In this document: positions 15,598 through 64,000 of the stretch, in pieces
Layout: each line of letters starts with the position of its first letter
How positions within the stretch are numbered: the stretch's first letter is position 1
NCBI GenBank assembly: GCA_030390025.1
Contig: CM059432.1
Span: 3,162,001-3,226,000, forward strand
Reading direction: 5' to 3'
Origin: Squalus acanthias
Lineage: Eukaryota
DNA length: 64,000 bases
Position numbers and translations under genes: made by a program
The notes under the pieces: generated by a model
The model's input: the letters and a program-made list of their open reading frames with translations, nothing else
The model's database searches: none
Told to the model about the DNA's origin: nothing

Positions 15598-16159
15598 TGG
15601 AACATAGGAACAGGAGGAGGCCATTCAGCCCCTCCAGCCTGTTCTGCCATTCAATGAGATCATGGCTGATCTGTATCTTAACTCCATCTACCCGCCTTGG
15701 TTTCGTAACCCTTAATACCCTCACCCAACAAAAATCTATCAATCTCAGTCTTAACATTTTCAATTGACCCCCCCCCCACCCCCCCCAACCCTCCCTCAAC
15801 AGCTTTTTGGGGGAGAGAGTTTGAGAGTTCCAGATTTCCACTGCCCTTTGTGCTTCCTGACATCACCCTTGAACAGCCTGGCTCTAATTTTAAGGTCACA
15901 CCCCCTTGTTCTGGACTCCCCCACCAGAGGAAATACAAAGTTATGTACAGAAACAGGCCCAACAGGTCCATGCCGGTGTTTCTGCTCCACATGAGCCTCC
16001 TCCCACTGCTCTTCATCTCACCCCATCAACACAATCCTTCTCACTATCTACCCTATCAAACCCTTTAATCATCTTAAACACCTCAATTAGATCACGTATT
16101 AATCTTCTCTACTCCAGGGAGTACAAGCCTAGTCTGTGCAACCTGTCCTCATAATTTAA
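15598..16159 (-). mobile_element. CR1 3' fragment (continues at 20555-20790)
   Basis: Joining CCTGTCCTCATAATTTAA with CCCTTTTGTCCCCGGTATCATTC reproduces the CR1 sequence seen near 39510-39560. Confidence 0.8.
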
Positions 16160-16705
16160 ATGTGAGAAGTCGCACAACACCAGGTTATAGTCCAAGGGGT
16201 AAAAATTCAGTTGGTTGCGCCTCCCGTTAGCGCCTTAAATGGGCGCTAATGGGGCGTTAAGGCGCTAACGCCCGGGCGCAGCGCTGTTTGCGCCGCTCGA
16301 GAACTTAACTTGAGATTGTGCGGCGGCGCTAAAACTTACCGCTGCGACCACCTGCGCGCGCAGATTGTGACGTCAGTCCGTGGTGCAACGCCCTTGGGGC
16401 GCCCCGGAGCGGAAATTGAGTGGCGCCCCCTGCCTTACCGCCTGGCGCTTCCAACGACCAGAAGACTGGAACGTTATCAATCGGTCTGGGGCTGGGGGGG
16501 GCGCTATTTAAAGGGGGCCTCTTCCTGTCTTTTTCTGTGGTCGACATTTATGCACCACTCGTTCTGAGAGAGAGAGAGAGATTCGGAGAGAGAGAGAGAG
16601 ACTTCTACATTGACTCAACGCTTTGTGAGGTGGTTTTGCCTAGTTCATCCTAACTTTGCTGCTACTTTCGTTGCTGTACCTCATTACTTTTCTGGCAAAG
16701 AGAAG

Positions 16706-17848
16706 ATGGGGGCTGCAATGATTGGGGGCGTCGTCCTGCTCCAGCTCAATCGGAGCAGAGTGAGACGCAGACAGAGAGTGGCAATGATGGCCAGACGGAG
16801 GAGGCCCATCAGGCGCATGTACAGGAGAGCTTACCCTCCCAGGGTATATCGTGAACAGCTCTCCTACATCCACATGTCCGAGGAGCTGTGTTTGCGAAGG
16901 CTGCGATTCAGCAAGGAGGTGGTCACTGAGCTCTGCCACCTGCTGCAGCCAGATCTGCAGCCTCAGCTGAGGTCCAGGACGTCTCTGTCGGTGGCAGTGA
17001 AGGTCACAGTGGCCTTGAACTTCTACGCCACTGGCTCATTCCAAGCTGCTGTTGGGGACCTCGCCAATATCTCCCAGTTTGCGGTGCATCGCTGCATCCG
17101 GCAGGTCACCAATGCCCTCTTCACAAGGAGACGAGACTTCATCTCCTTCCCTATGACCCCAGACAAGCAGCATGACCGTGCTATGGGCTTTGCGAGGGTA
17201 GCGGGCTTCCCCATGGTGCAGGGCGCCATTGACTGCACGCATGTGGCTTTGCGTGCTCCGCGAGAGAATGCAGAGGAGTTCCGGAACAGAAAGGGGTTCC
17301 ATTCCTTGAATGTGCAGTTGGTCTGTGACCACAGACAGGTGATTCTCGCTGTCAATGCCCACTATCCGGGCAGCTGCCACGATGCTTTCATCCTGCGCCA
17401 GAGTACTGTGGCAGAAATTTTCGAGGCACCGCATCTGGGGGACAAGGGGTACGCATTGAGCACCTGGCTGATGACACCGCTCCGTGCGCCAAACACCCCT
17501 GCTGAGCTGCGGTACCAGGAAAGCCAACAAGCAACGAGGAACATTATTGAGCGCACAATCGGCGTGCTCAAACAACGATTCCGCTGTCTGGACCATTCCG
17601 GAGGAGCCCTGCAGTACTCGCCTGAGCAAGTTTCCAAATTCGTAGTGGTGTGCTGCATGTTGCACAACATGGCAATCCTCAGGACGCAGCCAATGCCACC
17701 AGGCCTTGCAGCACCACAAGAGGAGGAGGAGGAAGAGGAGGAACAGGCCGAGGACGATGATCAGCAGCAGCACCAAGGCAGGAGGGCGGCCCACAATGGT
17801 CAAACTGCAAGGGCCGTCCGTCAACGACTAATAGCAAGCCGCTTCTAG
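16706..17848 (+). CDS. Harbinger DDE transposase (HARBI1-like family), 380 aa, 6-aa deletion before GDKGY
   Basis: Motifs GAIDCTH, NRKGFHSLNVQLVCD, YPGSCHDAFIL, GDKGY, RNIIERTIGVLKQRFRCL, CCMLHN; first in-frame ATG at 16706. Confidence 0.93.
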   Translation: MGAAMIGGVVLLQLNRSRVRRRQRVAMMARRRRPIRRMYRRAYPPRVYREQLSYIHMSEELCLRRLRFSKEVVTELCHLLQPDLQPQLRSRTSLSVAVKVTVALNFYATGSFQAAVGDLANISQFAVHRCIRQVTNALFTRRRDFISFPMTPDKQHDRAMGFARVAGFPMVQGAIDCTHVALRAPRENAEEFRNRKGFHSLNVQLVCDHRQVILAVNAHYPGSCHDAFILRQSTVAEIFEAPHLGDKGYALSTWLMTPLRAPNTPAELRYQESQQATRNIIERTIGVLKQRFRCLDHSGGALQYSPEQVSKFVVVCCMLHNMAILRTQPMPPGLAAPQEEEEEEEEQAEDDDQQQHQGRRAAHNGQTARAVRQRLIASRF

Positions 17849-18142
17849 GGCCCCTGCCAGTGCTACAAACACGAATCAACCCAGCACGCAACCCCTAAGC
17901 CGGCCAAGGCACCAATAATTCCAACCACCAGCCATGTATATTTTGAATACAGAAACTTATTTATTGTACAAACTCTGTGTGTGTCAATTCCTCATGACAA
18001 ACTCATAGAAATAAACACAAAAAAACAGTCAATAACATAACTGGTTCTCACAACCTGGAGATAATGTCCAAAACACTAAACAAAAGTTGGGCCATGAACC
18101 TCGGCCTTTAATAAAAAAATGACCAGCATTTTGGCACACCTC

Positions 18143-20141
18143 CTACTTTTTGCCCTTCGAGGGTGATCTCCTTCCCTTGCGCACTTCCCCCCTTCTAACC
18201 CTACTGCTCCTCCGTAATGGGACCTCAGTGGCTGCAGCAAGGCTGGTGGAAGGCTGCTGCTTGTCAGACCCTGACACTGCAGATGCCCCTGAAGGCCGGC
18301 CTCGACCACTTCTGGGCCTGGAGGGCCCGGCTGCAGACTGCACCAACTCTGCATGGGCGGCAGCAGTCTGTCCTACAGGCGGTGGCAAGTGCAGTGGAGA
18401 AGTGACAGTGTTGGCAGCAGGAATGCTGTCATCGTGAGAGAGGACAGCAACTCCCTGCTCGCCCGACACACTGGCACTCCCACGGGGCAGCACTTCAGCA
18501 TCCGGAGCAATTTGCCTGAGAACAGATTGCTGGCCTGCTGCGGCGCGGTGACAGCCCCGGGGACATGTGCACGAACCATCGAGGATGGCAGCAGTCAGTG
18601 CTCGCGTGGCCTCAATCTGAGTCTGCATGAGAGCAGGCTCAGATGGGTTCCTGGCAGCCAGTGACTGAATTGCAGCAGTAAGCTTTAGTGTGGCATCCGC
18701 CTGTGCTACAGCGAAGTGCTCCACACTCCTTGCCAGTGCCTCAATGCATTCGGGCACCCTTCCCACTGCACCCATGAGCTCAGTGTGCATGACCACCGCC
18801 TGGCTGTTCATTTCTGCAATCATCCGCTCCTCCTCTGCGTCCATTGCATTAGGAGTGTCTGGCATACTCTCCCTCTGGGGAGAAGGCTCCCGTTCTTCCC
18901 TCCCCCCCCCCATGGCGTTGCTGCAGCCCGCTGGGTCCTGGAACTTCACCATCATCAGCCCCTTCCCCCCTGCTCCCCCGTTCTTCCCTCCACCCCCCCA
19001 TGGCGTTGCTGCAGCACGCTGGGTCCTGGAACTTCACCATCATCAGCCCCTTCCCCCCTGCTCCCCCGTTCTTCCCTCCCCCCCCCATGGCGTTGCTGCA
19101 GCCCGCTGGGTCCTGGAACTTCACCATCATCAGCCCCTTCTCCCCTGCTCCCCTCCGGGGAAGGCGTGTTCCCAGTGTGGCCATGGGCTTCCTCGGGAGA
19201 GGGTGGCACTGATGCTCCGGCTTCCTCTTCCTCCTCAGCTGCAGCATCACTCCCAGTGGCAGCTTCAGGGACCATCTCCTCAGCTGGTGAATCACCATCT
19301 GAAAGCAGGGAGGTACAAGAGTGGCTTTAGCGTGAGGACAGGGTGGCAGTAAGGGAGGAATAAGTGCAGCGAGTTAGCAAGTTGGATTGAAAGTGTCAAA
19401 GGCTGGTATTGTGAGGGACAAGTGGAAGGACAGAGGACAAAAAGGTGATGACCTTACCATTGCTGTCCACAACGGGGTCGGCGTCTCCAGTGGCGACGGG
19501 ACCGATCACCCGGCTTGCCACAATCCTGTGGACGCGCTCCTCCAGATCGCTGAGGGGTTGCAGCTGAAGCCGCCCTCCACCCGTCCGTTGCTGCTGTCTC
19601 CGATTATGAGCCAGCTTAGCCTGCAAGAAAAAGGACAGCATCTGAGTCAATATGCAGCCATGGTCTTGCCTGATGTGCCTCCCATAGGTGAATAGCCCTT
19701 ACAATATGCAGCCATGGTCTTGCCTGATGTGCCTCCCATAGGTGAATAGCCCTTACTGTATGCAAAGTGTGGAATGTGTGTGTGTGTTTGATGAAAGGGC
19801 CATAGGTGTTGGATGAGTGTTGTGCATTGGGGTTTTAAGACCCTCTGGCCATAGAGTGAGGTTGAGATGGAGGGATGGAGAGGTATTGAGAAAAAGCCAC
19901 TCACCCTGACGACCCGAGTGAGGTCGTTGAACTTTTTGCGGCACTGGACATGGGTCCTGGGCACCATGCTCCTGGAGGAGACGCTCTGAGCCACCTCCCT
20001 CCACACTCTTCTGAACTCGCGTGGCAAAGGCCTCCTGCCACTCTCTGGGAACAGCATGCATCGTCTGCGCTCCACTGCGTCAACCAGAGCATCCAAGGCC
20101 CGCTCGGTGAAGCGATGAGCGCGTTCTCTCACCCTCTCCAT
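18143..20141 (-). pseudogene. Harbinger Myb/SANT-like gene, copy 1; exons 20141-19905, 19620-19458, 19298-18143; frameshifted in exon 3 (stop at 18957-18955, ~247 aa)
   Basis: Exon 1 encodes RFTERALDALV...VWREVAQSVSSRSMVPRTHVQCRKKFNDL; canonical GT-AG sites; a triplicated 87/88-nt unit shifts the frame. Confidence 0.85.
18890..19155. repeat. Three tandem 87-88-nt units inside Myb exon 3 of copy 1
   Basis: CATGGCGTTG recurs at 18911, 18999 and 19086; copy 2 has a single unit. Confidence 0.92.
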
Positions 20142-20516
20142 TCTTGGCAGCAAAATGGATTACAGGTCTCTCCAGGCTGAGATTCAAGGCTGCAATGAGC
20201 AGGGTGTGGCTGGGGAGCAAGTGGCCCCCCCCGCTTTAAGAAGTGTCCGGCGCCAGTGTGTCTGTGTTACCGCGCTAACTGGCAGCAGCTGCGCTGCGCT
20301 CGTGCGCTGAGTTAGCGCCTCACTCCTAGGCCTTTGCGCCTTAAGAGAGGTGTGCAGCGCCTAATTTAGCGCTCCACTCACCTCCCGGGGCGGTAAAAGT
20401 GAAGTTTCCTGTCAGTGCCGATAATTAGCGCCAGGCGCTAATATTTGCACGCGGACGATATTTGCGCCCCAAATGGGGCGCGACCTAATTTCTACCCCCA
20501 ACAGTTTTATTTGAAA

Positions 20517-20554
20517 TCACAAGCTTTCGGAACTGCTGCCCCTTCGTCAGGTGA
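20517..20554 (-). ncRNA. Minimal type I hammerhead ribozyme motif in a Penelope-like terminal remnant (remnant spans 16160-16195 plus 20499-20554)
   Basis: Minus strand reads UCAC-CUGACGA-A-GGGG-CAGCAG-UUCC-GAAA-GC-UU-GUGA: intact core, stem I UCAC/GUGA, stem II GGGG/UUCC, palindromic AAGCUU in place of stem III. Confidence 0.7.
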
Positions 20555-20796
20555 CCCTTTTGTCCCCGGTATCATTCTGGTGAATCTGCGCTGCTCCCCC
20601 TCCAAGGCCGATATATCCTTCCCGAGATGGTGGTACCCAGAACTGAACGCAGTTACTCCAGATGGGGTCTAACCAGAGCTCCATACAACTGTAACATAAC
20701 ATCCACCCCTTTGTATTCCTGCACCCTTGAGGTAAAGGCCAGCATTCTATTAGCCTTTTAAATTATTTTTGTACCTGTCCACTAGCTCTCAGAGAA

Positions 20797-21170
20797 GAAA
20801 AAAAAGAAAGACTTGCATTTCTACAGAGCCTTTCACGACCACCGGACGTCCCAAAGCGCTTTACAGCCAATGAGGTACTATTTGAAGTGCAGTCACTGTT
20901 GTAATGTGGGAAACACTGTGGCCAATTTGCGCACAGCAAGATCCCACAAACAGCAATGTGATAATGACCAGATAATCTGTTTTTAGTGATGTTGATTGAG
21001 GGATAAATATTGGCCCAGGTCACCGGGCAGAACTCCCCTGCTCTTTTTCGCAATAGTGCCATGGGATCTTATACGTCCACCTGAGGGAACAGACAGGGCC
21101 TCGATTTAACGTCTCATCCGAAAGACGGCACATCCGACATTGCACTGGAGAGTCAGCCTAGATTTTTTGT
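20797..21170 (-). mobile_element. Deu-domain SINE, head truncated
   Basis: Tail and Deu core match the other copies. Confidence 0.85.
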
Positions 21171-21466
21171 GCAAGAGGCCAGAATTGGAGGAGCACAGAG
21201 ATCTCGGAGGGTTGTAAGGCTGGAGGAGATTACAGAGATAGGGAGGTGGGGGGGGGGGGGCCGAGACCATGGAGGGATTTGAAAACAAGAATGATGATTT
21301 AAAAATAGAGGCGTTGCCGGACCGGGAGCCAGTGTTGGTCAGTGAGTACAGGGGGTGATGGGTGAACGGGACTTGGTACGAGTTAGGACACGGGCAGCAG
21401 AGTTTTGGATGAGCTCAAGTTTACGGAGGGTGGAGGATGCGAGGCCGGCCAGGAGGGCATTGGAAT
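21170..21466 (-). mobile_element. L2 LINE fragment
   Basis: Similar to 10020-10280 and 54107-54446. Confidence 0.78.
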
Positions 21467-21618
21467 GTTTAGTGTGCAGCATTTCTAATCTTCTCACTGA
21501 GGTTTCAAGCGGATTTGGAACTCAGTAAAATGAGTGAACACCAGGTGTGAACAGGGGAACTCTTAGCTTTTGTAATCCCAACGGTTCAGTACCCTGCAGC
21601 TGCTCACCAGGATTATAA

Positions 21619-21911
21619 GTGGCTCAGTGGGTAGCACCCTCGCCTCTGAGTCAGAAGGTTGTGGGTTCGAGTCCCACTCCAGAGACTTGAGCATAAAGTC
21701 CAGGCTGACACTCCCAGTGCAGTGCTGAGGGAGTGCTGCACTGTCGGAGGTGCCATCTTTCGGATGAGACATTAAACCGCGGCCCCGTCTGCTCTCTCTC
21801 AGGTTGGACGTAAAAGATCCCACGGCCACTATTTCGAAGAAGAGCAGGGGAGTTCACCCCGGTGTCCTGGGGCCAATATTTATCCTTCAACCAACATCAC
21901 TAAAACAGATT
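21619..21911 (+). mobile_element. Deu SINE 5' half, split by Harbinger copy 2 (3' half 26074-26232)
   Basis: ACTAAAACAGATT joined to ATCTGGTCATTATCACATTG restores the SINE sequence. Confidence 0.92.
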
Positions 21912-22423
21912 GGGGTAAAAATTCAGTTGGTTGCGCCTCCCGTTAGCGCCTTAAGAGGACGCTAATGGGGCGCAAAGCCGCTAACGCCCGGGCGCAGCGA
22001 TGTTTGCGCCGCTCCGGAACTTAACTAGACATTGTGCGGCGGCGCTAAACTTTACCGCTGCGACCACCTGCGCGCGCAGATTGTGACGTCATTCCATGGT
22101 GCAACGCCCTTGTGGCGCCCCAGAGCGGAAATTGAGTGGCGCCCCCTGCCTTACCGCCTGGCGCATCCAACGACCGGAAGACTGGAACGCTATCAATCGC
22201 TGTGGGGCTGGGGGGGGGCGCTATTTAAAGGGGGCCTCTTCCTGTCTTTTTCTGTGGTTGACATTTTTGCACCACTCGTTCTGAGAGAGAGAGAGAGATT
22301 CGGAGAGAGAGAAAGAGAGACTTCTGCATTGAGTCAACGCTTTGTGAGGTAGTTTTGCCTACTGATCCTAACTTCGCTGGTACTTTGGTTGCTGTCCTTC
22401 ATTACTTTGCTTGCAAAGAGACT

Positions 22424-23584
22424 ATGGGGGCTGCACTGATTGGGGGCGTTGTCCTGCTCCAGCTGAATCGGAGGACACAGAGACGCAGAGAGAGAGTGGC
22501 AATGATGGCCAGACGGAGGAGGGCCAACAGGCGTATGTACAGGAGAGCTTACCCTCCCAGGGTATATCGTGAACAGCTCTCCTACATTCATATGTCTGAG
22601 GAGCTGTGTTTGCGAAGGCTGCGATTCAGCAAGGAGGTGGTCACTGAGCTCTGCCACCTGCTGCAGCCAGATCTGCAGCCTCAACTGAGGTCCAGGACGT
22701 CTCTGTCGGTGGCAGTGAAGGTCACAGTGGCTCTCAACTTCTATGCTACTGGCTCATTTCAAGCTGCTGCTGGGGACCTCGCCAATATCTCCCAGTTCGC
22801 GGTGCATTGCTGCATCCGGCAGGTCACAAATGCCCTCTTTAAAAGGAGACGAGAGTTCATCTCTTTCCCCATGACCCCAGACAAGCAGCGTGACCGCGCT
22901 CTGGGCTTTGCGAGGATAGCGAGCTTCCCCATGGTGCAGGGCGCCATTGACTGCACGCATGTGGCTTTGCGTGCTCCACATGAGAATGCCGAGGAATTCC
23001 GGAACAGAAAGGGGTTCCATTCCTTGAATGTTCAGTTGGTCTGTGACCACAGACAGCTGATACTCGCTGTCAATGCCCACTATCCTGGCAGCTGCCACGA
23101 TGCTTTTATCCTGCGCCAGACTACTGTGGCAGAACTTTTCGAGGCACCGCATCAGCCAGTTGGTTGGCTTCTCGGGGACAAGGGGTATCCATTGAGCACC
23201 TGGCTGATGACACCGCTCCGTATGCCCAACACCACTGCTGAGCTGCGGTACAATGAGAGCCATCAAGCTACCAGGAACATCATTGAGCGCACAATCGGTG
23301 TGCTGAAGCAACGGTTCCGCTGTCTCGACCATTCTGGAGGAGCCCTGCAGTACTCGCCTGAGCGAGTATCCAACTTCGTAGTTGTGTGCTGCATGTTGCA
23401 TAACATGGCAATCGTCAGGACCCAGCCAATGCCACCAGGCCTTGGAGCACCACCAGAGGAGGAGGAGGAAGAGGAGGAAGAGGACGAGGAGGATGATCAT
23501 CAGCAGCACCAAGGCGGGAGGGCGGCTCACAATGGTGAAACTGCAAGGGCCGTCCGTCAACGGCTAATAGCAAGCCGCTTCTAG
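22424..23584 (+). CDS. Harbinger DDE transposase, 386 aa, intact
   Basis: GAIDCTH, HDAFIL, WLLGDKGYPL, IERTIGVLKQRF and CCMLHN motifs; no stops. Confidence 0.95.
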   Translation: MGAALIGGVVLLQLNRRTQRRRERVAMMARRRRANRRMYRRAYPPRVYREQLSYIHMSEELCLRRLRFSKEVVTELCHLLQPDLQPQLRSRTSLSVAVKVTVALNFYATGSFQAAAGDLANISQFAVHCCIRQVTNALFKRRREFISFPMTPDKQRDRALGFARIASFPMVQGAIDCTHVALRAPHENAEEFRNRKGFHSLNVQLVCDHRQLILAVNAHYPGSCHDAFILRQTTVAELFEAPHQPVGWLLGDKGYPLSTWLMTPLRMPNTTAELRYNESHQATRNIIERTIGVLKQRFRCLDHSGGALQYSPERVSNFVVVCCMLHNMAIVRTQPMPPGLGAPPEEEEEEEEEDEEDDHQQHQGGRAAHNGETARAVRQRLIASRF

Positions 23585-23896
23585 GGCCCCTGCTGTGGAA
23601 ATGGCTTCTGCCATTGCTAACAACATCAATGAACCCAGCACGCAACCCCTAAGCCGGCCAAGGCACCAATAATTCCAAACACCAAACATGTATATTTTGA
23701 ATACAAAAACTTATTTATTTTACAAACTCTGTGTGTGTCATTTCCTCATGACAAACTCATAGAAATAAACACAAAAAAACAGTCAATAACATAACTGGTT
23801 CTCACAACCTGGAGATAATGTCCAAAACACTAAACAAAAGTTGGACCACGAACCTCGGCCTTTAATAAAAAAATAACCAGCATTTTGTCACGCCTC

Positions 23897-25713
23897 CTAC
23901 TTTTTGCCCTTCGAGGGTGATCTCCTTCCCTTGCGCACTTCCCCCCTTCTAACCCTACTGCTCCTCCGTAATGGGACCTCAGTGGCTGCAGCAAGGCTGG
24001 TGGAATGCTGCTGATCGTCAGACCCTGACACTGCAGATGCCCCTGAAGGACGGCCTCGACCAGTTCTGGGCCTGGAGGGCCCGGCTGCAGACTGCACCAA
24101 CTCTGCATGGGCGGCAGCAGTCTGTCCTACAGGCGGTGGCAAGTGCAGTGGAGAAGTGACAGTGTTGGCAGCAGGAATGCTGTCATCGTGAGAGAGGACA
24201 GCAACTCCCTGCTCGCCTGACACACTGGCACTCCCACGGGGCAGCACTTCAGCATCCGGAGCAATCTGCTGGAGAACAGATTGCTGGCCTGCTGCGGCGC
24301 GGTGAGAGCCCCGGGGACATGTGAACGAACCATCGAGGTTGGCAGCAGTCTGTGCTCGCGTGGCCTCAATCTGAGTCTGCATGAGAGCAGTCAGAGATGG
24401 GATCACGGCAGCCAGTGACTGAATTGCAGCACTAAGCGTTAGTGCGGCATCCGCCTGTGCTACAGCGAAGTGCTCCACACTCCTTGCCAGTGACTCAATG
24501 CATTCGGGCACCCTTCCCACTGCACCCATGAGCTCAGTGTACATGCCCACCGCCTGGGTGTTCATTTCTGCGATCAGCCGCTCCTCCTCTGCGTCCATTG
24601 CAGTAGGAGTCTCTGGCATACTCTCCCTCTGGGGAGAAGGCCCCCGTTCTTCCCTACCCCCATGGCGTTGCTGCAGCCCGCTGGGTCCTGGAGCTTCACC
24701 CTCATCAGACCCTTCCCCCCTGCTCCCCTCCAGGGAAGGCGTGTTCCCAGTGTGGGCATGGGCTTCCTCGGGAGAGGGTGGCACTGATGCTCCGGCTTCC
24801 TCTTCCTCCTCGGCTGCAGCTTCACTCCCAGTGGCAGCTTCAGGGCCCGTCTCCTCAGCTGGTGAATCACCATCTGAAAGCAGGGAGGTACAAGAGTGGC
24901 TTTAGCGTAAGGACAGGGTGGCAGTAAGGGAGGAATAAGTGCAGCGAGTTAGCAAGTTGGATTGAAAGTGTCAAAGGCTGGTGTTGTGAGGGACAAGTGG
25001 AAGGACAGAGGACAAAAAGGTGATGACCTTACCATTGCTGTCCAGAACGGGGTCGGCGTCTCCAGTGGCGACGGGACCGATCACCCGGCTTGCCACAATC
25101 CTGTGGACGCGCTCAAGATCGCTGAGGGGTTGCAGCTGAGGCCGCCCTCCACCTGTCCGTTGCTGCTGTCTCCGATTATGCGCCAGCTTGGCCTGCAAGA
25201 AAAAGGACAGCATCTGAGTAAATATACAGCCATGGTCTTGCCTGATGTGCCTCCCATAGGTGAATAGCCCTTACTGTATGCAGCCATGGTCTTGCCTGAT
25301 GTGCCTCCCATAGGTGAATAGCCCTTACTGTATGCAAAGTGTGGAATGTGTGTGTGTGTTTCATGAAAGGGCCATAGGTGTTGGATGAGTGTTGTGCATT
25401 GGGGTTTTAAGACCCTCTGGCCATAGAGTGAGGTTGAGATGGAGGGATGGAGAGGTATTGAGAAAAAGCCACTCACCCTGACGACCCGAGTGAGGTCGTT
25501 GAACTTTTTGCGGCATTGAACATGGGTCCTGGGCACCATGCTCCTGGAGGAGACGCTCTGAGCCACCTCCCTCCACACTCTTCTGTACTCGCGTGGCAAA
25601 GGCCTCCTGCCACTCTCAGGGAAGAGCATACATCTTCTGCGCTCCACCGCACCAACCAGAGCATCCAAGGCCCGCTCGGTGAAGCGATGAGCTCGTTCTC
25701 TCACCCTCTCCAT
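23897..25713 (-). CDS. Harbinger Myb/SANT-like DNA-binding protein (NAIF1/MSANTD-like), 457 aa; exons 25713-25477, 25192-25033, 24873-23897
   Basis: Donors AGG|GTGAGT and ATG|GTAAGG, acceptors TTCTTGCAG| and CTTTCAG|; intron phases 0 and 1 join into one uninterrupted frame; basic C-terminus RRSSRVRRGEVRKGRRSPSKGKK. Confidence 0.88.
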
Positions 25714-26466
25714 CCTTGGCAGCAAAATGGATTCACAGGTCTCTCCAGGCCGAGATTCAAGGCTGCAATGAGCAGGGTGTGGCTGGGGAGCAAGTTGGCC
25801 CCCCCCCGCTTTAAGAAGTGGCCGGCGCCAGTGTGTCTGTGTTCCCTCGCTAACTGGCAGCAGCTGCGCTGCGCTCGCGCGCTGAGTTAGCGCCTCACTG
25901 CTCGGCCTTTGCGCCTTAAGACAGGTGTGCAGCGCCTGATTTAGCGCTCCACTCAACTCCCGGGGCGGTAAAAGTGAAGTTTCCAGTCAGTGGCGATAAT
26001 TAGCGCCAGGCGCTAATATTTGCGTCCAGACGATATTTGCGCCCCAAACGGGGCGCGACCTAATTTTCCCCCCATTATCTGGTCATTATCACATTGCTGT
26101 TTGTGGGAGCTTGCTGTGCGTAAATTGGATGCCGCGTTTCCAACATTACACTTCATTGGCTGTAAAGCACTTCGGGACGTCCTGATGTTGTGAAAGGCGC
26201 TGTAGAAATACAAGTTCTTTCTTTCTTTCTTTCTATGTGAAGAAAGGCCAGTTGGTTGAGGTATGAGAAAGCTGCCAATACCCAGTGAACTGTACTCGAG
26301 CAGGAGTTACTGCCTTCAGGGGAAAGGGCAAGAAAACTGGAGGGAGAATCTTGGCATCAAACCATGGTTTATGGCAGTGCCAGATCAACTTTAAATTAGA
26401 TAAGTTAAAAAGCCCGTCACTTAAGTTATCTTCTGATTCCATTTGTACATCCTAATCTCATACATA

Positions 26467-29206: not shown

Positions 29207-32200
29207 AACATAACGTAGGAACAAAAGAAATAGGAGCAGGAGTAGGCCATACGGCCCCTCGAGCCTGCTCCACCATTCAATAAGATCATGGCTGATCTTC
29301 TACCTCAACTCCACTTTCCTGCACTATCCCCATATCCCTTGATTCCCTTAATATCCAAAAATCTATCGATCTCTGTCTTGAATATACTCAACGACTGAGC
29401 CTCCACAGCCCTCTGGGGTAGAGAATTCCAAAGATTCACCACCCTCTGAGTGAAGAAATTTCTCCTCATCTCAGTCCTAAATGGCCGATCCCTTATTCTG
29501 AGACTGTGACCCCTGGTTCTAGACTCCCCAGCCAGGGGAAACATCCTCCCTGCATCTACCCTGTCAAGCCCTGTAAGGATTTTGTATGTTTCAATGAGAT
29601 CACCTCTCATTCTTCTAAACTCTAGAGAATATAGGCAGAGCCTACTCAATCTCTCCTCAGGACAATCCCCCCCATCCCAGGAATCAGTCTGGTGAACCTT
29701 CGTTGCACTCCCTCTATGGCAAGTATATCCTTCCTTAGGTAAGGAGACCAAAACTGTACACAATACTCCAGGTGTGGTCTAACCAGGGCCCTATATAATT
29801 GCAGTAAGACATCTTTACTCTTGTACTGAAATCCTCTTGTAATAAAGGCAAACATACCATTTGCTTTCCTAATTGCTTGCTGTACCTGCATGTTAACTTT
29901 GAGTGATTAGTGTACAAGGACACCCAGGTCCCTCTGAACACCAACATTTCCCAAACTCTCACCATTTAAAAAATACTCTGCTTTTCTATTTTTCCTACCA
30001 AAGTGGATAACTTCACATTTCTCCACATTATATTCCATTTGCCATGTTCTTGCCCACTCACTTAGCCTGTCTATATCACCTTGAAGCCTCTTTGCATCCT
30101 CCTCACAACTTACATTCCCACCCAGCTTTGTATCATCAGCAAACTTGGACATATTATATTTGGCACCCTCAACCAAATCATTGATGTAGATTGTGAATAG
30201 CTGAGGCCCAAGCACTGATCCTTGCGGTACCCCACTAGTTACAGCCTGCCAACTCGAAAATGACTCGTTTATTCCTACTCTCTGTTTTCTGTCCATTAAC
30301 CAATCCTCAATCCATGCTAATATATTACCCCCAATCTCATGAGCCCTAATTTTGTTTAATAACCTCTTGTGTGGCACCTTATCGAATGCCTTCTGAAAAT
30401 CCAAATACACCACATCCATCGATTCCACCTTATCTATTCTGCTACTTACAACCTGAAAAAACTCTAACAGATTCGTCAAACATGATTTCCCTTTCATAAA
30501 TCCATGTTGACTCTGCCCAATCCTATTATTATTTTCTAAGTGCCCTTTTACCACGTCCTTAATAATAGATTCTAGCATTTTCCTTACTACTGATGTCAGG
30601 CTAACTGGTCTGTAGTTCCCCGTTTTCTCTCTCCCTCCTTTCTTAAATAGTGGCGTTACATTTGCTATCTTCCAATCCACAGGAACCGTTCCAGAATCTA
30701 TGGAATTTTGGAAGATGACAACCAATGCATCCACTATCTCTATAGCCACCTCTTTCAAAACCCTAGGATGTAGGCCATCAGGTCCAGGGGATTTATCGGC
30801 TTTCAGTCCCATTAATTTCTCCAGTAATATTTCCTTACTAATACTAATTTCTTTCAGTTCCTCATTCTCACTAGACCCTTGGTTCTCCTATTTCTGGGAA
30901 GTTTTTTGCGTCTTCTTCCGTGAAGACAGACACAAAAGCTGTGATTTTTTCATTAGAGGTGGGCTGGGTGCGGGTCAGGTGGTTTCCGGCTTCCAGTCCC
31001 GCCCCCAACTGCATCCGGCCCACAGACGTGATTTTATGTTGATTGACCTTGTTAAGCCCACCCTGCGGGCTTGCTGGCCAATTAAGAGGAAGCCGGTCAG
31101 ATGACGTCATTTGATGACTGCGTCATCTGCCGCTTTTCTGAAAGGGACCATGCACAATTTTATTTTGGCAGCTGATTTCTCAGTGTTTGACAGCATTGAG
31201 GTGCGGAAAACACTGACAATCACTCTACCAAGGTGAGCTCTTGACACCTAGGCTCTCCAATGACTCCCTCCATAGGCTGGAATAGATGGCAGCTGCAGGT
31301 GAGGTGACAGAAGCGATCTGTCACTGGTGAGAGAGGTTCTCCCAATGAGGTGGCACTGGGCATGGATTTCAAAACTTGTTACCTAAAGAAATGTGTAAAT
31401 ACATTAAAAATGAATTTCCCAACATTTTCTTACCTCTGAGACTCACCAGTGCACCATTGGATCCTTCACACCACTTCTGCAACTGTCATCAATCCAGAAA
31501 CATTACACCAGACTCACAACACGTCACGCTTACCTGGCGTAGAGTCCGGACATCGGGAAACCCGAGGCAGAAGCCGCAAAATGTAAAAAATAGCCTGTCA
31601 ATTACTATCAACTACCTGTTAATAGGCAGGTAATTGGCTTTAATCCACTTCCCGCCGCTAGGTACCGGGTCCATGCGCAAATCAGGGACCCGACACTTGG
31701 GAAAATTGTTTGGAGGCGGGTTGACAGCGGGATCGGAACCCGCCGTCAATCAAAACGATCTTGACTTTTGACCCGCCTCCAAAGTCACCCTCTCAGTGCC
31801 GATAAAATCGCGGCCAAAGTATTTCCTTAATTTCTCATCCATTTTCTTATTCCCCATTATAATTTCCCCTGTCTCAGCCTGTTAGGGACCCACATTTACT
31901 TTCGCTAATTTTTTCCTTTTTGCATACCTATAGAAGCTTTTACAATCTGTTTTTATGTCTCGCTAGTCTACTCTCATATTCTATTTTCCCTTTCTTTATC
32001 AATTTCTTGGTCCTCCTTTGCTGAATTCTAAAATCCTCCCAATCCTCAGGCTTACTACTCTTGTTGCCAACATTATAAGCCTCTTCCTTTGATCTAATAC
32101 TATCTTTAACTTCTCTTGTTAGCCACGGTTGGACCACTTTTCCTGTGGTGTTTTTGTGCCTTAAAGGAATGTATATTTGTTGTAATTTATGTATTAATTC

Positions 32201-32468: not shown

Positions 32469-32936
32469 TTCAATGTTTGACACCACATTAACAGAAACTT
32501 TACATGAATATTGCATAAAATACCCAAGTGCCTACCCTTATGTGTTGTTAGTTGGTATGATTGCACTAGGATGTGGGTGAGTGTGAGGGGTGGCTAGTGA
32601 GATGGAGATTTGATGATATAGATAGAGAAGGATGGGTGGAGGTCCAAGGTAAGTTGGTGTGAGTAAGGATGTGCAAGAGTAGGGTAGGGAAGGCAGAGTG
32701 ATGGGGATGTAATGAGAGCCACAGCAGAATGAGGTTGAGTGTGGCTTTGTACTGACGTTTCGTGATCTACTGAGATCATTGAAAGGTTTGCGGCACTGCA
32801 CCCAGGTCCTCCTGACCACATCCCTGGTTGTGCCCTCCTGTGCAATGTGCAACCAGGCTGCATTGATCTCTTGGTGAGGTGTCTTCCACCTATAGGAAGG
32901 GAAGAGGACCTCCCTGCATGTTGTGACTCCCTCCTT

Positions 32937-34745: not shown

Positions 34746-36507
34746 GGCCGCGATTTTCCTCACCTCAGCGGATCCGGTGCAGCTGGGGTCGGTGGCGGGT
34801 CGCGGCCCCGCTGCGGGCTCCATCCCGCTCTGTGAAATGATTTTCCCTTGATAGGGCTTGTTAAACCCCGCCCAGCGCGCTTCCCGGGCCAATTAGAGGA
34901 AGCGGGTTTGATGACGTCATTTGATGACGCATCATCAGCCGGTTTCCTTATAGGGACCATGGACAACTTTAGTTTGACTTTGTGCTGTTAGTGTTCTACA
35001 GCATTGAGGTGCTGCAAACACTGACAAGCACTGCTCAAAGGCACAGGGCTGCACCCAGGCTCTCCCATGACTCCCACCATATGCTTATGGAGAGAGTCAC
35101 AGCACGCAGGGAGGTCCTCTTCCCTTCCCATGGGCAGAAGATACCTCCCCAGGAGATCAACACAGCCTGGTTGCACATTGCACAGGAGGTCACCAACAGG
35201 GATGTGGTCAGGAGGACCAGCTGCAGTGCCGCAAACATTTCAAAGATCTCAGTAGATCACAAAACATTAGTACAAAGCCTTCATCCTGCTGTGCCTCTCA
35301 TCACATCCCCATCACTCTGCCTTCCCTACCCTACTCCTGCACATCCTTACTCACACCAACTTACCTTGCACCTCCACCCACCCCTCTCTATCTACATTAT
35401 CACTTCCCCATCTCACTAGCCACCCCTCACACTCACCCTCATCCTAGTGCAATCATACCAACTAACAACACACAAGGGTAGGCACTTGGGTGCTTTATCC
35501 AATGTTCATGTAAAGTTTCTGTTAATGTGCTGTCAAACATTGAAACCTTTATTTTCAACACTTTCCATTCTTGGACAGATTTGTGTGCACCTTTGGAAGA
35601 GGCTTAGTGAGTTGCAGTGAATGGTGAGACATAACGGTACCCCCCACAATGGTGGTGAGTGTGAAAGGAATGGCTTGGGCATTGTAGGGATGCTTTATGG
35701 TGTTCCTGTGGGGTGGTGCCAACCTGGCACATCATTTGGCAGCCAGGGTGTGCAGTGTCAAGTGAAGTAAATCTGGCCACGGTGAGGCCATCCCTGGCCT
35801 CCTGGGCAGCAATGTGGTCGGGTGCTGATGCCCTCTGTCCTGTGCAGCATCAGGTGATTGTGGAGAAGGTTGTTGGTGCTGCTGGTGTGCCTGGTGATGC
35901 TGGTGTTGGGGCTGATTGTGGTCAGATTCTGAGGACCAAGGTGAGAGAGTATAAAGGGCACCCATGCTGATGGAATAGATGGCAGGTGAAGTAGAGATGA
36001 CAGGAGCATTCTGTCAATGGTGAGAGTTCTTCCAAAGAGGTGATACTGGATGGAGAGTGGAAAATGGAAAGCCTGCTGAATCTGTGCTGGAAATGGACTG
36101 AGAAACAGCTTGTGGCTGAGGAAAGTGAAGATCTGTCAGGTGGAAGCTTTTACTGTACATTTGAAGCTGTCAAGGAATCAGCTGGAGCAATGGCCACTGA
36201 ACTTCTGCCTCAGGTTGACAGCCGTGGTCCCCGAACAGTGTGGTTCCCGCGGCCATGAAGTTAAAGTGAAAAGGTAAGTTAAAAAAAGCCTGTTAATGAT
36301 CTGTCAATGAGGCAATAATGAGATTAATTGGGTCGCCCGACGCTGCCTGTCGGGTCTGCTCAGCGCTGACAGACCTGCCATCGGGGAAAAGCACGTTGCG
36401 GCAGGTCAACATCGGGGTCCTGACCCGTTGTCCAACAAAAAAACTTTCCCACCCGACCCGCCATCGATCCAGCCCGCTGACCCCCCGGAAAATTCCCCCC
36501 TCCCCCC
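34746..36507. mobile_element. Non-autonomous Harbinger element B, same family as A, opposite orientation
   Basis: Left end GGCCGCGATTTTCC, degenerate right end GGAAAATTCCCCCC; possible TSD CAG; decayed Myb exon PRLSHDS...RREVLFPS...WLHIAQEV on +; colinear with the reverse complement of A. Confidence 0.82.
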
Positions 36508-42926: not shown

Positions 42927-44712
42927 AGGAAAGGGAAAGGAAAAGAAAGAAGGAAGGAAAGGAGGAAAGAAGGAAGAAGGGAGGAAAGAAGGAAAGAAGG
43001 GAGGAAAGAAGGAAGGAAAGGAGGAAAGAAGGAAAGAAGGGAGGAAAGAATGAAAGAAGGGAGGAAAGAAGGAAGGAAAGAAGAAAAGAAGGAAGGAAAG
43101 AAGGGAGGAAAGAAGAAAAGAAGGAAGGAAAGAAGGAAAGAAGAGAGGAAAGAAGGAAGGACAGAAGAAAAGAAGGGAGGAAAGAAGGAAGGAAAGAAGA
43201 AAAGAAGGAAGGAAAGAAGGAAGGAAAGAAGAAAAGAAGGAAGGAAAGAAGGAAAGAAGGGAGGAAAGAAGAAAAGAAGGAAGGAAAGAAGGAAAGAAGA
43301 GAGGAAAGAAGGAAGGACAGAAGAAAAGAAGGAAGGAAAGAAGGAAGGAAAGAAGAAAAGAAGGAAGGAAAGAAGGAAAGAAGGGAGGAAAGAAGAAAAG
43401 AAGAGAGGAAAGAAGAAAAGAAGGGAGGAAAGAAGAAAAGAAGGGAGGAAAGAAGAAAAGAAGGAAGGAAAGAAGGAAGGAAAGAAGAAAAGAAGGAAGG
43501 AAAGAAGGAAAGAAGGGAGGAAAGAAGAAAAGAAGGAAGGAAAGAAGGAAAGAAGGGAGGAAAGAAGAAAAGAAGGGAGGAAAGAAGAAAAGAAGGGAGG
43601 AAAGAAGAAAAGAAGGGAGGAAAGAAGAAAAGAAGGGAGGAAAGAAGAAAAGAAGGAAGGAAAGAAGGAAGGAAAGAAGAAAAGAAGGAAGGAAAGAAGG
43701 AAGGAAAGAAGAAAAGAAGGAAGGAAAGAAGGAAAGAAGGGAGGAAAGAAGAAAAGAAGGGAGGAAAGAAGAAAAGAAGGAAGGAAAGAAGGAAGGACAG
43801 AAGAAAAGAAGGGAGGAAAGAAGGAAGGAAAGAAGAAAAGAAGGAAGGAAAGAAGGAAGGAAAGAAGAAAAGAAGGAAGGAAAGAAGGAAAGAAGGGAGG
43901 AAAGAAGAAAAGAAGGAAGGAAAGAAGGAAAGAAAGAAAGAAAGAAAGGAGGAAAGAAGGGAGGAAAGAAGGGAGGATAGAAGAAAAGAAAGGAGGGAGG
44001 AAAGAAGGAAGGAGCGAAAGAGGAAAAGAAGGGAGGAAAGAAGGAAGGAACGAAAGAGGAAAATAAAGGAGGAAAGAAGGAAGGAAAGATGAAAAGAAAG
44101 GAAAGAAGGAAAGAAGAGAGGAAAGAAGGAAAGAAAGGAGGGAAGAAGAAAAGAAAGGAGGAAAGGAAGAAAGAAGGAAAGATGGGAGAAAGAAGGAAGG
44201 AAGGAAAGAAGAAAAGAAAGGAATGAAGGAATAAAGGGGGGAAAGAAGGAAAGAAAGGAAGAAAGAAGGAAGGAAGGATAGAAGAAAAGAAAGGAGGAAA
44301 GAAGAAAAGAAAGGAAAGAAGGAAAGAAGGAGGAAAGAAGGGAAGAAGGAAAGAAGAGAAGAAAGAAGGAAAGAAAGGAGGAAAGGAGGAAAGAAGGAAA
44401 GAAGGAAGGAAAGAAGGAAAGAAGGGAGGAAAGAAGGAAGAGAAGGGAGGAAAGAAGGAAAGAAGGGAGGAAAGAAAAGAAGGGAGGAAAGAAGAAAGAG
44501 AAGGAAGGATAGAAGAAAAGAAAGGAGGAAAGAAGGAAGAAAGGAGGAAAGAAGGAAGGAAGGATAGAAGAAAAGAAAGGAGGAAAGAAGGAAGGAGGAA
44601 AGAAGGAAGGAAAGAAGGGAGGAACGAAAGAGGAAAAGAAAGGAGGAAAGAAGGAAGGAGGAAAGAAGAAAAGAAGGGAGGAAAGAAGGAAAGAAAGGAG
44701 GAAGAAAGGAAA
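42927..44712. repeat. ~1.8-kb polypurine (GA-rich) tract
   Basis: Almost only A and G, with GGAAAGAA-type subunits. Confidence 0.97.
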
Positions 44713-44892
44713 GTGCCCTGACCCCTCCCCTCTCCTGTGCAGTCTGCCCATTCCTGACTTGCTTCTGCTCTGCTTCGGCCTTCCCCTCACTCCCAGCCCA
44801 CCCCAAGTCCCTGCAACAAGTTCACTCCCACTCTCCCCAGTACCAGCCTTTCACCTCACCACTTCCCTTTAACCCCCGCTCTCACCCTCACA

Positions 44893-45419: not shown

Positions 45420-45919
45420 NNNNNNNNNNNNNNNNNNNNNNNNNNNNNNNNNNNNNNNNNNNNNNNNNNNNNNNNNNNNNNNNNNNNNNNNNNNNNNNNN
45501 NNNNNNNNNNNNNNNNNNNNNNNNNNNNNNNNNNNNNNNNNNNNNNNNNNNNNNNNNNNNNNNNNNNNNNNNNNNNNNNNNNNNNNNNNNNNNNNNNNNN
45601 NNNNNNNNNNNNNNNNNNNNNNNNNNNNNNNNNNNNNNNNNNNNNNNNNNNNNNNNNNNNNNNNNNNNNNNNNNNNNNNNNNNNNNNNNNNNNNNNNNNN
45701 NNNNNNNNNNNNNNNNNNNNNNNNNNNNNNNNNNNNNNNNNNNNNNNNNNNNNNNNNNNNNNNNNNNNNNNNNNNNNNNNNNNNNNNNNNNNNNNNNNNN
45801 NNNNNNNNNNNNNNNNNNNNNNNNNNNNNNNNNNNNNNNNNNNNNNNNNNNNNNNNNNNNNNNNNNNNNNNNNNNNNNNNNNNNNNNNNNNNNNNNNNNN
45901 NNNNNNNNNNNNNNNNNNN
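45420..45919. other. Assembly gap (500 N)
   Basis: Run of N. Confidence 1.
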
Positions 45920-47006: not shown

Positions 47007-47722
47007 AGGCTAGAAATTCGCCTTCCGTTGGCGCCTCCGGGGGGCGCTAACGGCTTACCGCCCGGGCGCGGCGATGGATCCGCCGCCCGCGAAATTCACC
47101 TGCCGGTGTGCGGCGGCGGTAACCCCTAGCGCCACGCTCTCCTGCGCCCGGAGATCGTCACGTCATGCGGCTGCGCGGCGCCCCGGACCCGAAATTCGGT
47201 TCCGCCCCCTGCAGCATCGCCGGGCGACAACACCGAGAGCTGCAGGAGGCCGTTGTCCGGGAGGCCGTTGCTTCGGGAGCGCTAATTAAAGGTAAGGCCG
47301 CTGGTCTTCGGTAGAAACGTGTTTCCTTCCTTTAGGGCGCATTTTGAAAATGTTTAACTGCCGCGATTGACCAGCCCTCCTCTCTGTTAGAGAGCTTGGG
47401 GCTGATTGTCGAGGATCCCGGCTGCCGTCGGCGACGAGGGAGATGGTTCAAATGCAGAGTCTGCAGCGATGGCCCTTCCCTTTAAGGGAGGGAAGGAGCC
47501 CTCGGGACATTGTGCGGCGCTGCTCCTCTACCGCCCCCCGCCCCCCCGCGTGGTTTAGCGCTCCAGATGGGAAGTGGTTGCGCTTGATTTATCGCTCCAC
47601 TTCCTCCCTGGAGCGCGAACACTGAATTTAGAGAAAGCTGAGAATGATCAGCGCCTGGCGCTAATTTTTCCAGCTTTCAAAATTTAGCGCCCCCAAGCGG
47701 GTCGATACCGAATTTCCCCCCC
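47007..47722. mobile_element. Harbinger MITE resembling the ends of the autonomous copies
   Basis: Ends AGGCTAGAAATTCG and CGAATTTCCCCCCC; subterminal GGCGCTAA/TTAGCGCC motifs; no clean TSD. Confidence 0.72.
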
Positions 47723-62944: not shown

Positions 62945-64000
62945 GGGGGGGGGGGGGGAAATTTGCGTGCCCCAACAGAACTGCCGGTATCACCGGCAAC
63001 TCGAGTTAATGGCCGCTGAAAATGGCCGCAGCGCTACCGGTGCCAATTTCGCGCTGGGGGTTGGCAATGTGGAGCGCAGCGCTAACTTACCGTGTAACGC
63101 CCTGCTGGTGGACGTTAATGGAGGCCTCCGACCCGTTCACCAGTCAGCGTTGCAACTTCTTACAGCCTGTGGGAGCGAGGCTGTGGAGTTCGCAAGTCAT
63201 TATGGGCAATTAAAGTGGCTATGAATTAAAGGGGCAGTACATTGCGAACGAATAAAAATTACAATGCAGTGAAAAAATGCAGTTTTCAGCCCTTACTGCC
63301 TTTCAATAAAAAATATACCCTTAAAAATAAGCCCCAAATGGGAGTCTTCAGCACTTAAAGCTGAATTCCCTTCCGAGCCTCAACAAATGGGAAAACTGCC
63401 TCAGCACTAACACAAATGGCACCGAGGGTCTCGCACACAGCACTCCAGCTTTGTGCAGAGGGTCAACACTGCAAGAGTGGCCCTCTACCCACAGGGGCCA
63501 GGAGGCCCTCCAGAAAGAACGATGTGGGAGTACATCACTAAGGCTGTCACTGCCAGCAGTGTTGCCTCCACCTCCTGGCTCCAACGCCCAAAGAAGTTTC
63601 ACGACCTCAGGCCACTGGTCAAGGTCAGTGAATGCATCTTCAAAAACCGTCTCCTACCAACTGCACCACTCGCCTCACACACTGCTCAATGCACGACCCC
63701 CAATCATTCACCTACCAACAATCTGCACCAATCACGAGGCACATCTTCCATTCCTAGCCTCATCTCACCTCCTTGGAGGAGACAGTGCAGGTCATTCTTG
63801 GCTGAGCCCTTGGCCAGTGCTGGGGCTGGAAGGATACAAGATGCTGGTAACCTCATGCTGTTATCCTCCTTCTGGCATGCACCTCTTGCTTTCCCGCCCT
63901 CCCCTCACCACAACTCCACCCTTGTGCCTTCCTCATTTCACAAATCCAAGAAATGCAGCCTGCCCAGCCAGTGGTTGAGCAAGAGGAGGGAGAGGAGAGT
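62945..64000 (+). mobile_element. Start of another decayed Harbinger element with a Myb exon remnant (63522-63623)
   Basis: GGGG...GAAATTTG end, GCAGCGCTA motifs, MWEYITKAVTASSVASTSWLQRPKKFHDLRPLVK|GTCAGT. Confidence 0.6.

Follow-up and report, generated by a model that had tools for sequence, protein, structure and literature searches.

A full-length two-gene PIF/Harbinger transposon with a three-exon Myb gene in the spiny dogfish Squalus acanthias

Could a natural vertebrate Harbinger transposon, found as it stands in a genome, still be competent to move with its own two proteins? The question is raised by a stretch of 64,000 nucleotides of Squalus acanthias (GenBank assembly GCA_030390025.1, contig CM059432.1, positions 3,162,001 to 3,226,000), here called the window and numbered from its first letter, in which an initial annotation had noticed an apparently intact two-gene PIF/Harbinger transposon with a hidden spliced Myb gene. 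The element spans 21912-26073 (4162 bp), with ATT flanking both ends. Our analysis indicates that it is probably a single full-length insertion belonging to an abundant PIF/Harbinger family of elasmobranchs, an ordinary young copy that has either drifted or come from a minor sublineage; probably it is partly impaired or silent and not a source element. The anatomy of the element and of its relatives in the window is given in Table 1.

The terminal inverted repeats (TIRs) of the element are 12 bp long and agree at 10/12 positions. A TIR alone is weak evidence, because the 64-kb window has seven 12-mers that differ from the reversed left TIR by no more than two mismatches. Only two candidate pairs of left and right ends, however, have matching 3-bp flanks, namely those of the element and of a sister copy. 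The element lies inside a short interspersed element (SINE) with a tRNA-like head, which we presume to be HE1-like. Of the nine paralogues of this host SINE in the window that span the junction, six continue across it with just one ATT, as empty sites do, and the same empty form is present in public contigs; the ATT target-site duplication (TSD) is therefore real, and the ends proposed in the initial annotation are confirmed, the insertion into a host SINE and the sister copy being additional to that account. A TIR and a 3-bp TSD were found in both copies, empty sites for the element only: the sister sits in another repeat-like sequence (16140-16195 and 20499-20560), and an empty paralogue of its insertion site was not found in the window. 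Both insertion sites carry an A four bases before the TSD and a T four bases after it (n = 2). The GGCGCTAA-like motif, which was picked after the fact, occurs 12 times in the two ends of the element, against 0.8 times in shuffled sequence, and once in the 3.6-kb interior; these repeats are candidate Myb-binding sites. The left subterminal region has a CpG observed/expected ratio of 1.12. No match to Rfam at E 0.1 was obtained across 21500-26400. Just upstream of the element lie two inverted copies of the host SINE (21001-21175 and 21686-21885), about 500-850 bases apart.

The right TIR had been considered imperfect enough for the element to act mainly in trans. This argument is weak, since the end keeps its length and its TSD, and a miniature inverted-repeat transposable element (MITE)-like relative in the window ends in a similar G-run. 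At 0.4% divergence (see below) the chance of two changes in a given 12 bp is about 0.001, so that the G-run right end is likelier to have been inherited, or to reflect slippage in the run, than to result from point decay; the family-majority right end is not among the variant rows listed.

The transposase frame encodes 386 residues without a stop, matches Pfam DDE_Tnp_4 (E 1.9e-39) and has all four acidic residues (D176, D226, D252 and E288) in place; an uninterrupted transposase of this length with acidic catalytic motifs had been read in the initial annotation. Its predicted structure is confident (pLDDT 89), and the predicted fold is transposase-like, nearest to the piggyBac (Z 9.8, root-mean-square deviation 5.1, 225 residues aligned) and Tn5 (Z 9.1, deviation 5.7, 237 aligned) transposases; a Harbinger structure was not among the fold-search rows listed, which excludes nothing, and a sequence search of the PDB gave low-complexity matches only. 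The best protein match, 67% identical over 90%, is an elasmobranch 'putative nuclease HARBI1' (e.g., of Pristiophorus japonicus), and the first 75 of 120 listed homologues bear shark or ray names; the exact sequence was not in the protein collection searched. In a midpoint-rooted tree of 43 rows, for which the 41 of the 120 homologues with all four acidic residues were kept, both window copies fall among elasmobranch transposases, apart from those of bony fish, and this tree gave no sign of horizontal transfer.

The second gene runs on the minus strand in three exons of 237, 160 and 977 nucleotides, which join across GT-AG introns into a protein of 457 residues; retention of either intron leads to a stop codon. 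Exon 1 matches Myb_DNA-bind_5 (E 2e-9), in agreement with the N-terminal Myb/SANT domain first proposed. A HMMER search gave 72 Myb homologues (a word-index search with exon 1 gave one among 183 candidates), 67 of which match the spliced protein, and 47 of these 67 reach residue 95 or beyond, i.e., past junction 1, whereas only 5/68 do so for the form that reads through intron 1. One homologue (Pristiophorus japonicus) aligns over Myb residues 11-454 at 37%. Among frame-keeping GT-AG alternatives the proposed junction 1 ranks first of 58 and junction 2 first of 55, the latter by a small margin (1448 vs 1426 summed bits), in a ranking that is partly circular, as its 10 scoring homologues were taken from the comparison of read-through and spliced extension. 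All four Myb splice sites are kept in the sister copy. Protein homology thus supports both predicted junctions, and with them the hidden gene and its exact splice sites as initially annotated.

That the three-exon model is wrong, and the gene a fragmented relic or otherwise spliced, appears very improbable against this evidence. What speaks for it, beside the small margin at junction 2, comes from the RNA search: none of the 15 joints listed, out of 369, is a Myb splice joint, all 15 being from the SINE flank, because the read set reached about 100 bases into the SINE at either end, and these bases filled the tables of joints and loose ends. Contigs that are not spliced run over intron 2 (in X8) and over the first donor (in X14); these runs are guessed to be RNA and may represent DNA or pre-mRNA. 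Several of the runs that hold words of the element are likewise guessed to be RNA and none is recorded as such, and the sole raw RNA run (X22), from another organism, matched only a GA repeat. The available part of PMC9392472 contains nothing on introns in transposon Myb genes. A complex prediction of the transposase with Myb residues 225-345, made without alignments, scored 0.00 and informs neither way. Poly(A)-like hexamers oppose each other between the two genes at 23764 (plus strand) and 23714 (minus strand), within 23690-23795; if they were used, the convergent genes could share about 100 bases at their 3' ends and give rise to double-stranded RNA.

Table 1. Features of the two-gene element, its host SINE and its relatives in the window
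Feature	Positions	Strand	Remarks
Sister copy, full-length	16196..20498	+	TSD CAA; TIRs 11/12; 94.5% identical over 4120 aligned bases
Host SINE, 5' part	21619..21911	+	many paralogues in window
Left TSD, ATT	21909..21911		6/9 SINE paralogues with single ATT
Left TIR, 12 bp	21912..21923	+	starts GGGG; same as sister's left end
Left subterminal region	21924..22230		CpG-rich; GGCGCTAA-like repeats; TATA-like box at 22222
Transposase frame, 386 residues	22424..23584	+	D176, D226, D252, E288
3' region common to both convergent genes	23585..23896
Myb-like gene, exon 3	23897..24873	-	acidic linker, conserved helical region, basic tail
Intron 2, GT-AG	24874..25032	-	phase 1
Myb-like gene, exon 2	25033..25192	-	one codon shorter than sister at 25111
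Intron 1, GT-AG	25193..25476	-	phase 0; 2 x 54-bp tandem repeat, also in sister
Myb-like gene, exon 1	25477..25713	-	Myb/SANT domain
Right subterminal region	25790..26061		repeats of GGCGCTAA-like motif
Right TIR	26062..26073	-	10/12 matching left
Right TSD, ATT	26074..26076
Host SINE, 3' part	26074..26234	+
Non-coding MITE-like relative	47007..47722 (ends approximate)	+	about 70% alike to both ends; seven subterminal motif copies

The sister copy, 1.4 kb upstream of the element, has both genes broken. Its transposase has lost six codons, including the conserved W248-L249, through an 18-bp in-frame deletion and carries Gln at the conserved N277. A tandem expansion of 179 bp has put its Myb exon 3 out of frame. 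The ratio of non-synonymous to synonymous substitution rates (dN/dS) between the two copies is 0.25 for the transposase (p 2e-9; 0.16 for residues 40-335) and 0.09 for Myb residues 1-132 (p 6e-6); for the rest of the Myb protein it is 1.6, not different from 1. Since the between-copy ratios are low, both genes were under selection while the two lineages moved, and this purifying selection on both genes means that the lineage moved as a two-gene element; the signal says nothing about the present state of either insertion.

Some further features of the copy comparison (16196-20498 vs 21912-26073) stand apart from this. Across the Myb introns (24874-25476 vs 19299-19904) the copies differ at 7/443 sites, against 13/97 silent sites in exons 1-2 (p 2.5e-6), and the lowest 600-column divergence window lies below 999/1000 permutations; the low intron divergence suggests that gene conversion or template switching has produced a mosaic. 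Transversions equal or exceed transitions in most regions (in the transposase, 39 transitions and 45 transversions), and CpG transitions make up only 41 of the 226 differences between the copies.

The family to which both copies belong is an abundant, multi-copy elasmobranch PIF/Harbinger family. Half or more of the element's sampled words occur in 18/23 listed sequencing runs, under five organism codes and one row without a code. Three runs were aligned to the element, two of one organism (A), one of these perhaps being the source of the window, and one of another (B). All three cover the 30 element bins and include many variant contigs; of the pieces listed for organism B, 6/8 (192-610 bases) differ from the element at 1-7 letters and the other two at 14 and 16. 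The DNA run X3 has many variant contigs along the whole element, and is deeper at the element's ends than in the middle, a pattern that would be expected from non-autonomous derivatives, read depth here not being a copy number. The window also holds older, broken remnants of other Harbinger families at 32589-32915, 35051-35251 and 63510-63644 (two Myb exons and one transposase start).

How does the element compare with its own family? At 16 of the 38 variant sites listed inside the element (40 of 266 variant rows were listed in all) the other letter makes up 90% or more of the X3 depth, and the sister agrees with that letter at 13/16, so that the element differs from the family majority at no fewer than 13 sites. 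Five of these 13 copy-specific changes alter a residue (transposase 167 and 271; Myb 244, 276 and 422), and the copy-specific transposase residues are S167, T271 and probably M267. Private changes at conserved residues had been named in the initial annotation as speaking against its own proposal, and two are present, Gly167 to Ser in the transposase and His244 to Tyr in the Myb protein. Transposase position 167, which closes the helix preceding the first catalytic (D176) strand in the predicted structure, is Gly in 92/116 homologues and Ser in two, and among the 41 homologues that have the four acidic residues 31 carry Gly there. At Myb 244, 9/10 aligned homologues have His. Exon 2 is one codon short in comparison with the sister, in a conserved Myb helix, and is not demonstrably private in this, because in each of the three contig runs the longer form accounts for 34-48% of depth.

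From the best-holding runs 12% of the sampled words are missing, and this word share of 0.88 corresponds to a divergence of about 0.4%. At that divergence, 32-54% of 600 simulated copies under neutral decay still have the two frames, their starts and the splice sites undamaged, the range reflecting dependence on the assumed indel rate; because they would so often survive by chance, the open frames are no sign of competence. With the epaulette shark rate of 7e-10 per base per generation (as given in the consulted part of PMC10587355), 0.4% corresponds to about 5.7 million generations (range 2.8-29), an age which borrows the rate of another species, derived from five mutations, and assumes that every change postdates the insertion. 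Young in sequence need not mean a recent insertion in the shark.

Under the reading that we prefer, an ordinary young copy, the parent lineage would have used the two-protein cut-and-paste route that is already known. The sections of PMC2836001 and PMC9710019 at hand state that transposition depends on both proteins in Harbinger3_DR and Ping, and that the Myb protein, besides binding a subterminal motif, brings the transposase into the nucleus. By analogy with these systems, the spliced Myb protein would bind the repeated subterminal motifs and take the DDE transposase to the nucleus and to the ends of the element, its basic tail perhaps providing the nuclear signal, and the transposase would excise the element and insert it with a 3-bp duplication. 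The present copy would have landed in the SINE and then drifted, or would descend from a minor sublineage, and its frames would be open through youth of the sequence rather than through demonstrated selection.

The alternative raised by the initial annotation, that the element is a naturally competent and currently usable autonomous copy from a still-active sublineage, we regard as rather unlikely. The two frames and their starts are intact, as are the four splice dinucleotides, and the CpG-rich ends are undecayed; against this stand the altered Gly167 and His244, the codon missing from the Myb helix, and the divergence and age estimated above. Several observations do weigh against an impaired copy: the transposase keeps all 61 columns that are conserved in at least 85% of homologues, and Gly is absent at 167 from 10 of the 41 homologues that have the four acidic residues, so that the changes may be tolerated; with five replacement and three silent copy-specific changes, drift and selection are indistinguishable (p 0.41, 0.31); three of the 13 copy-specific letters create a CpG while four destroy one, and the former mean that some letters may come from a minor, possibly active sublineage; and the variant rows listed are only a part of the whole, contig depth not being allele frequency. 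A bolder version, that the copy-specific letters mark a still-mobile minor sublineage and the element is a natural working Harbinger with GGG-type ends and a relaxed NWN TSD inside a conserved A(-4)/T(+4) frame, is one that we hold to be unlikely; if true, an assay could be made without consensus rebuilding and could map which of the proteins sets target choice. That the gene pair is being turned into host genes at this site, as in the case of HARBI1/NAIF1 or the MSANTD genes, is scarcely credible: domesticated genes are single copy without TIR or TSD, whereas this copy has both, lies within a young SINE and has a broken sister 1.4 kb away, the family is multi-copy, and the selection signal lies between copies, as a history of transposition predicts. 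An ordinary young copy of the family remains our preferred explanation. That this copy stands out as naturally competent is not borne out, given the changes at conserved residues, open frames that chance would leave, and the intact vertebrate Harbingers already published.

Elsewhere in the window, a minus-strand open frame of 326 residues at 29907-30887 is presumably a fragment of a CR1/L2-type reverse transcriptase. A 1.8-kb GAAA/GGAA simple repeat array lies at 42945-44713, and a 500-base assembly gap at 45420-45919.

With its DDE_Tnp_4 transposase and acidic residues, a Myb/SANT second gene recognised by homology, TIRs and a 3-bp TSD, the element fits the PHIS or PIF-Harbinger superfamily. 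The comparisons that follow rest on the portions of the cited papers that were open to us. Zebrafish Harbinger3_DR resembles the element in its DDE transposase and Myb-like protein, its 3-bp TSD and a repeated subterminal motif as candidate Myb site; unlike this consensus from zebrafish, the element is a natural elasmobranch copy with the TSDs ATT and CAA in the two window copies, and the two are likened by description, not by sequence. NuwaI (PMC4482050) is similar in its animal host, a TIR that starts with GGG and measures 12 bp, two open reading frames with Myb/SANT, and size (mean 4.46 kb vs about 4.2 kb), but its TSD, CWG, occurs in 0/2 window copies, only the central W fitting both (n = 2 TSDs). 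The TSD of the narrow PIF/Harbinger group, TWA (Han et al. 2015, PMC4482050), is likewise found in 0/2 copies, and Pangu, with an ANT TSD and a second reading frame without known domain, would accommodate ATT but not CAA, and not the Myb domain. Because its TSDs fit neither CWG nor TWA, the element is not filed in a group of the TSD scheme; on the sequence features considered, it is an elasmobranch PIF/Harbinger member with NuwaI-like ends and genes and a non-canonical TSD.

Intact two-gene vertebrate Harbingers are already published, and the element is a further, elasmobranch case. Eleven NuwaI families were termed potentially active (Han et al. 2015, PMC4482050), expressed Harbinger expansions are reported in newt (PMC5741667), and Harbinger-Snek of sea kraits has 269 intact copies in Laticauda colubrina and one in L. 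laticaudata (PMC8437027). Like the element, Harbinger-Snek is an abundant vertebrate two-gene Harbinger with naturally intact copies and non-autonomous derivatives; it arrived by horizontal transfer, whereas the element's transposase falls among elasmobranch sequences. Among cartilaginous fish, a survey of 2022 recorded none in elephant shark and urged checking other cartilaginous fish (PMC9179366), and later genome papers, on whale shark and grey reef shark, name Harbingers at the level of the superfamily only. Our literature search, which did not extend to Repbase, Dfam or supplements, turned up no description of the element's family. Pristiophorus japonicus supplies the nearest matches, a HARBI1-annotated protein for the transposase and a homologue for the Myb protein, yet these represent different families. 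The element thus documents, for a cartilaginous fish, a two-gene Harbinger at full length whose Myb gene has three defined exons; it serves well as a reference for an abundant family and implies no new mechanism. Should a natural copy prove to work in cells, vertebrates would have a second two-component system, one that differs in its TSD.

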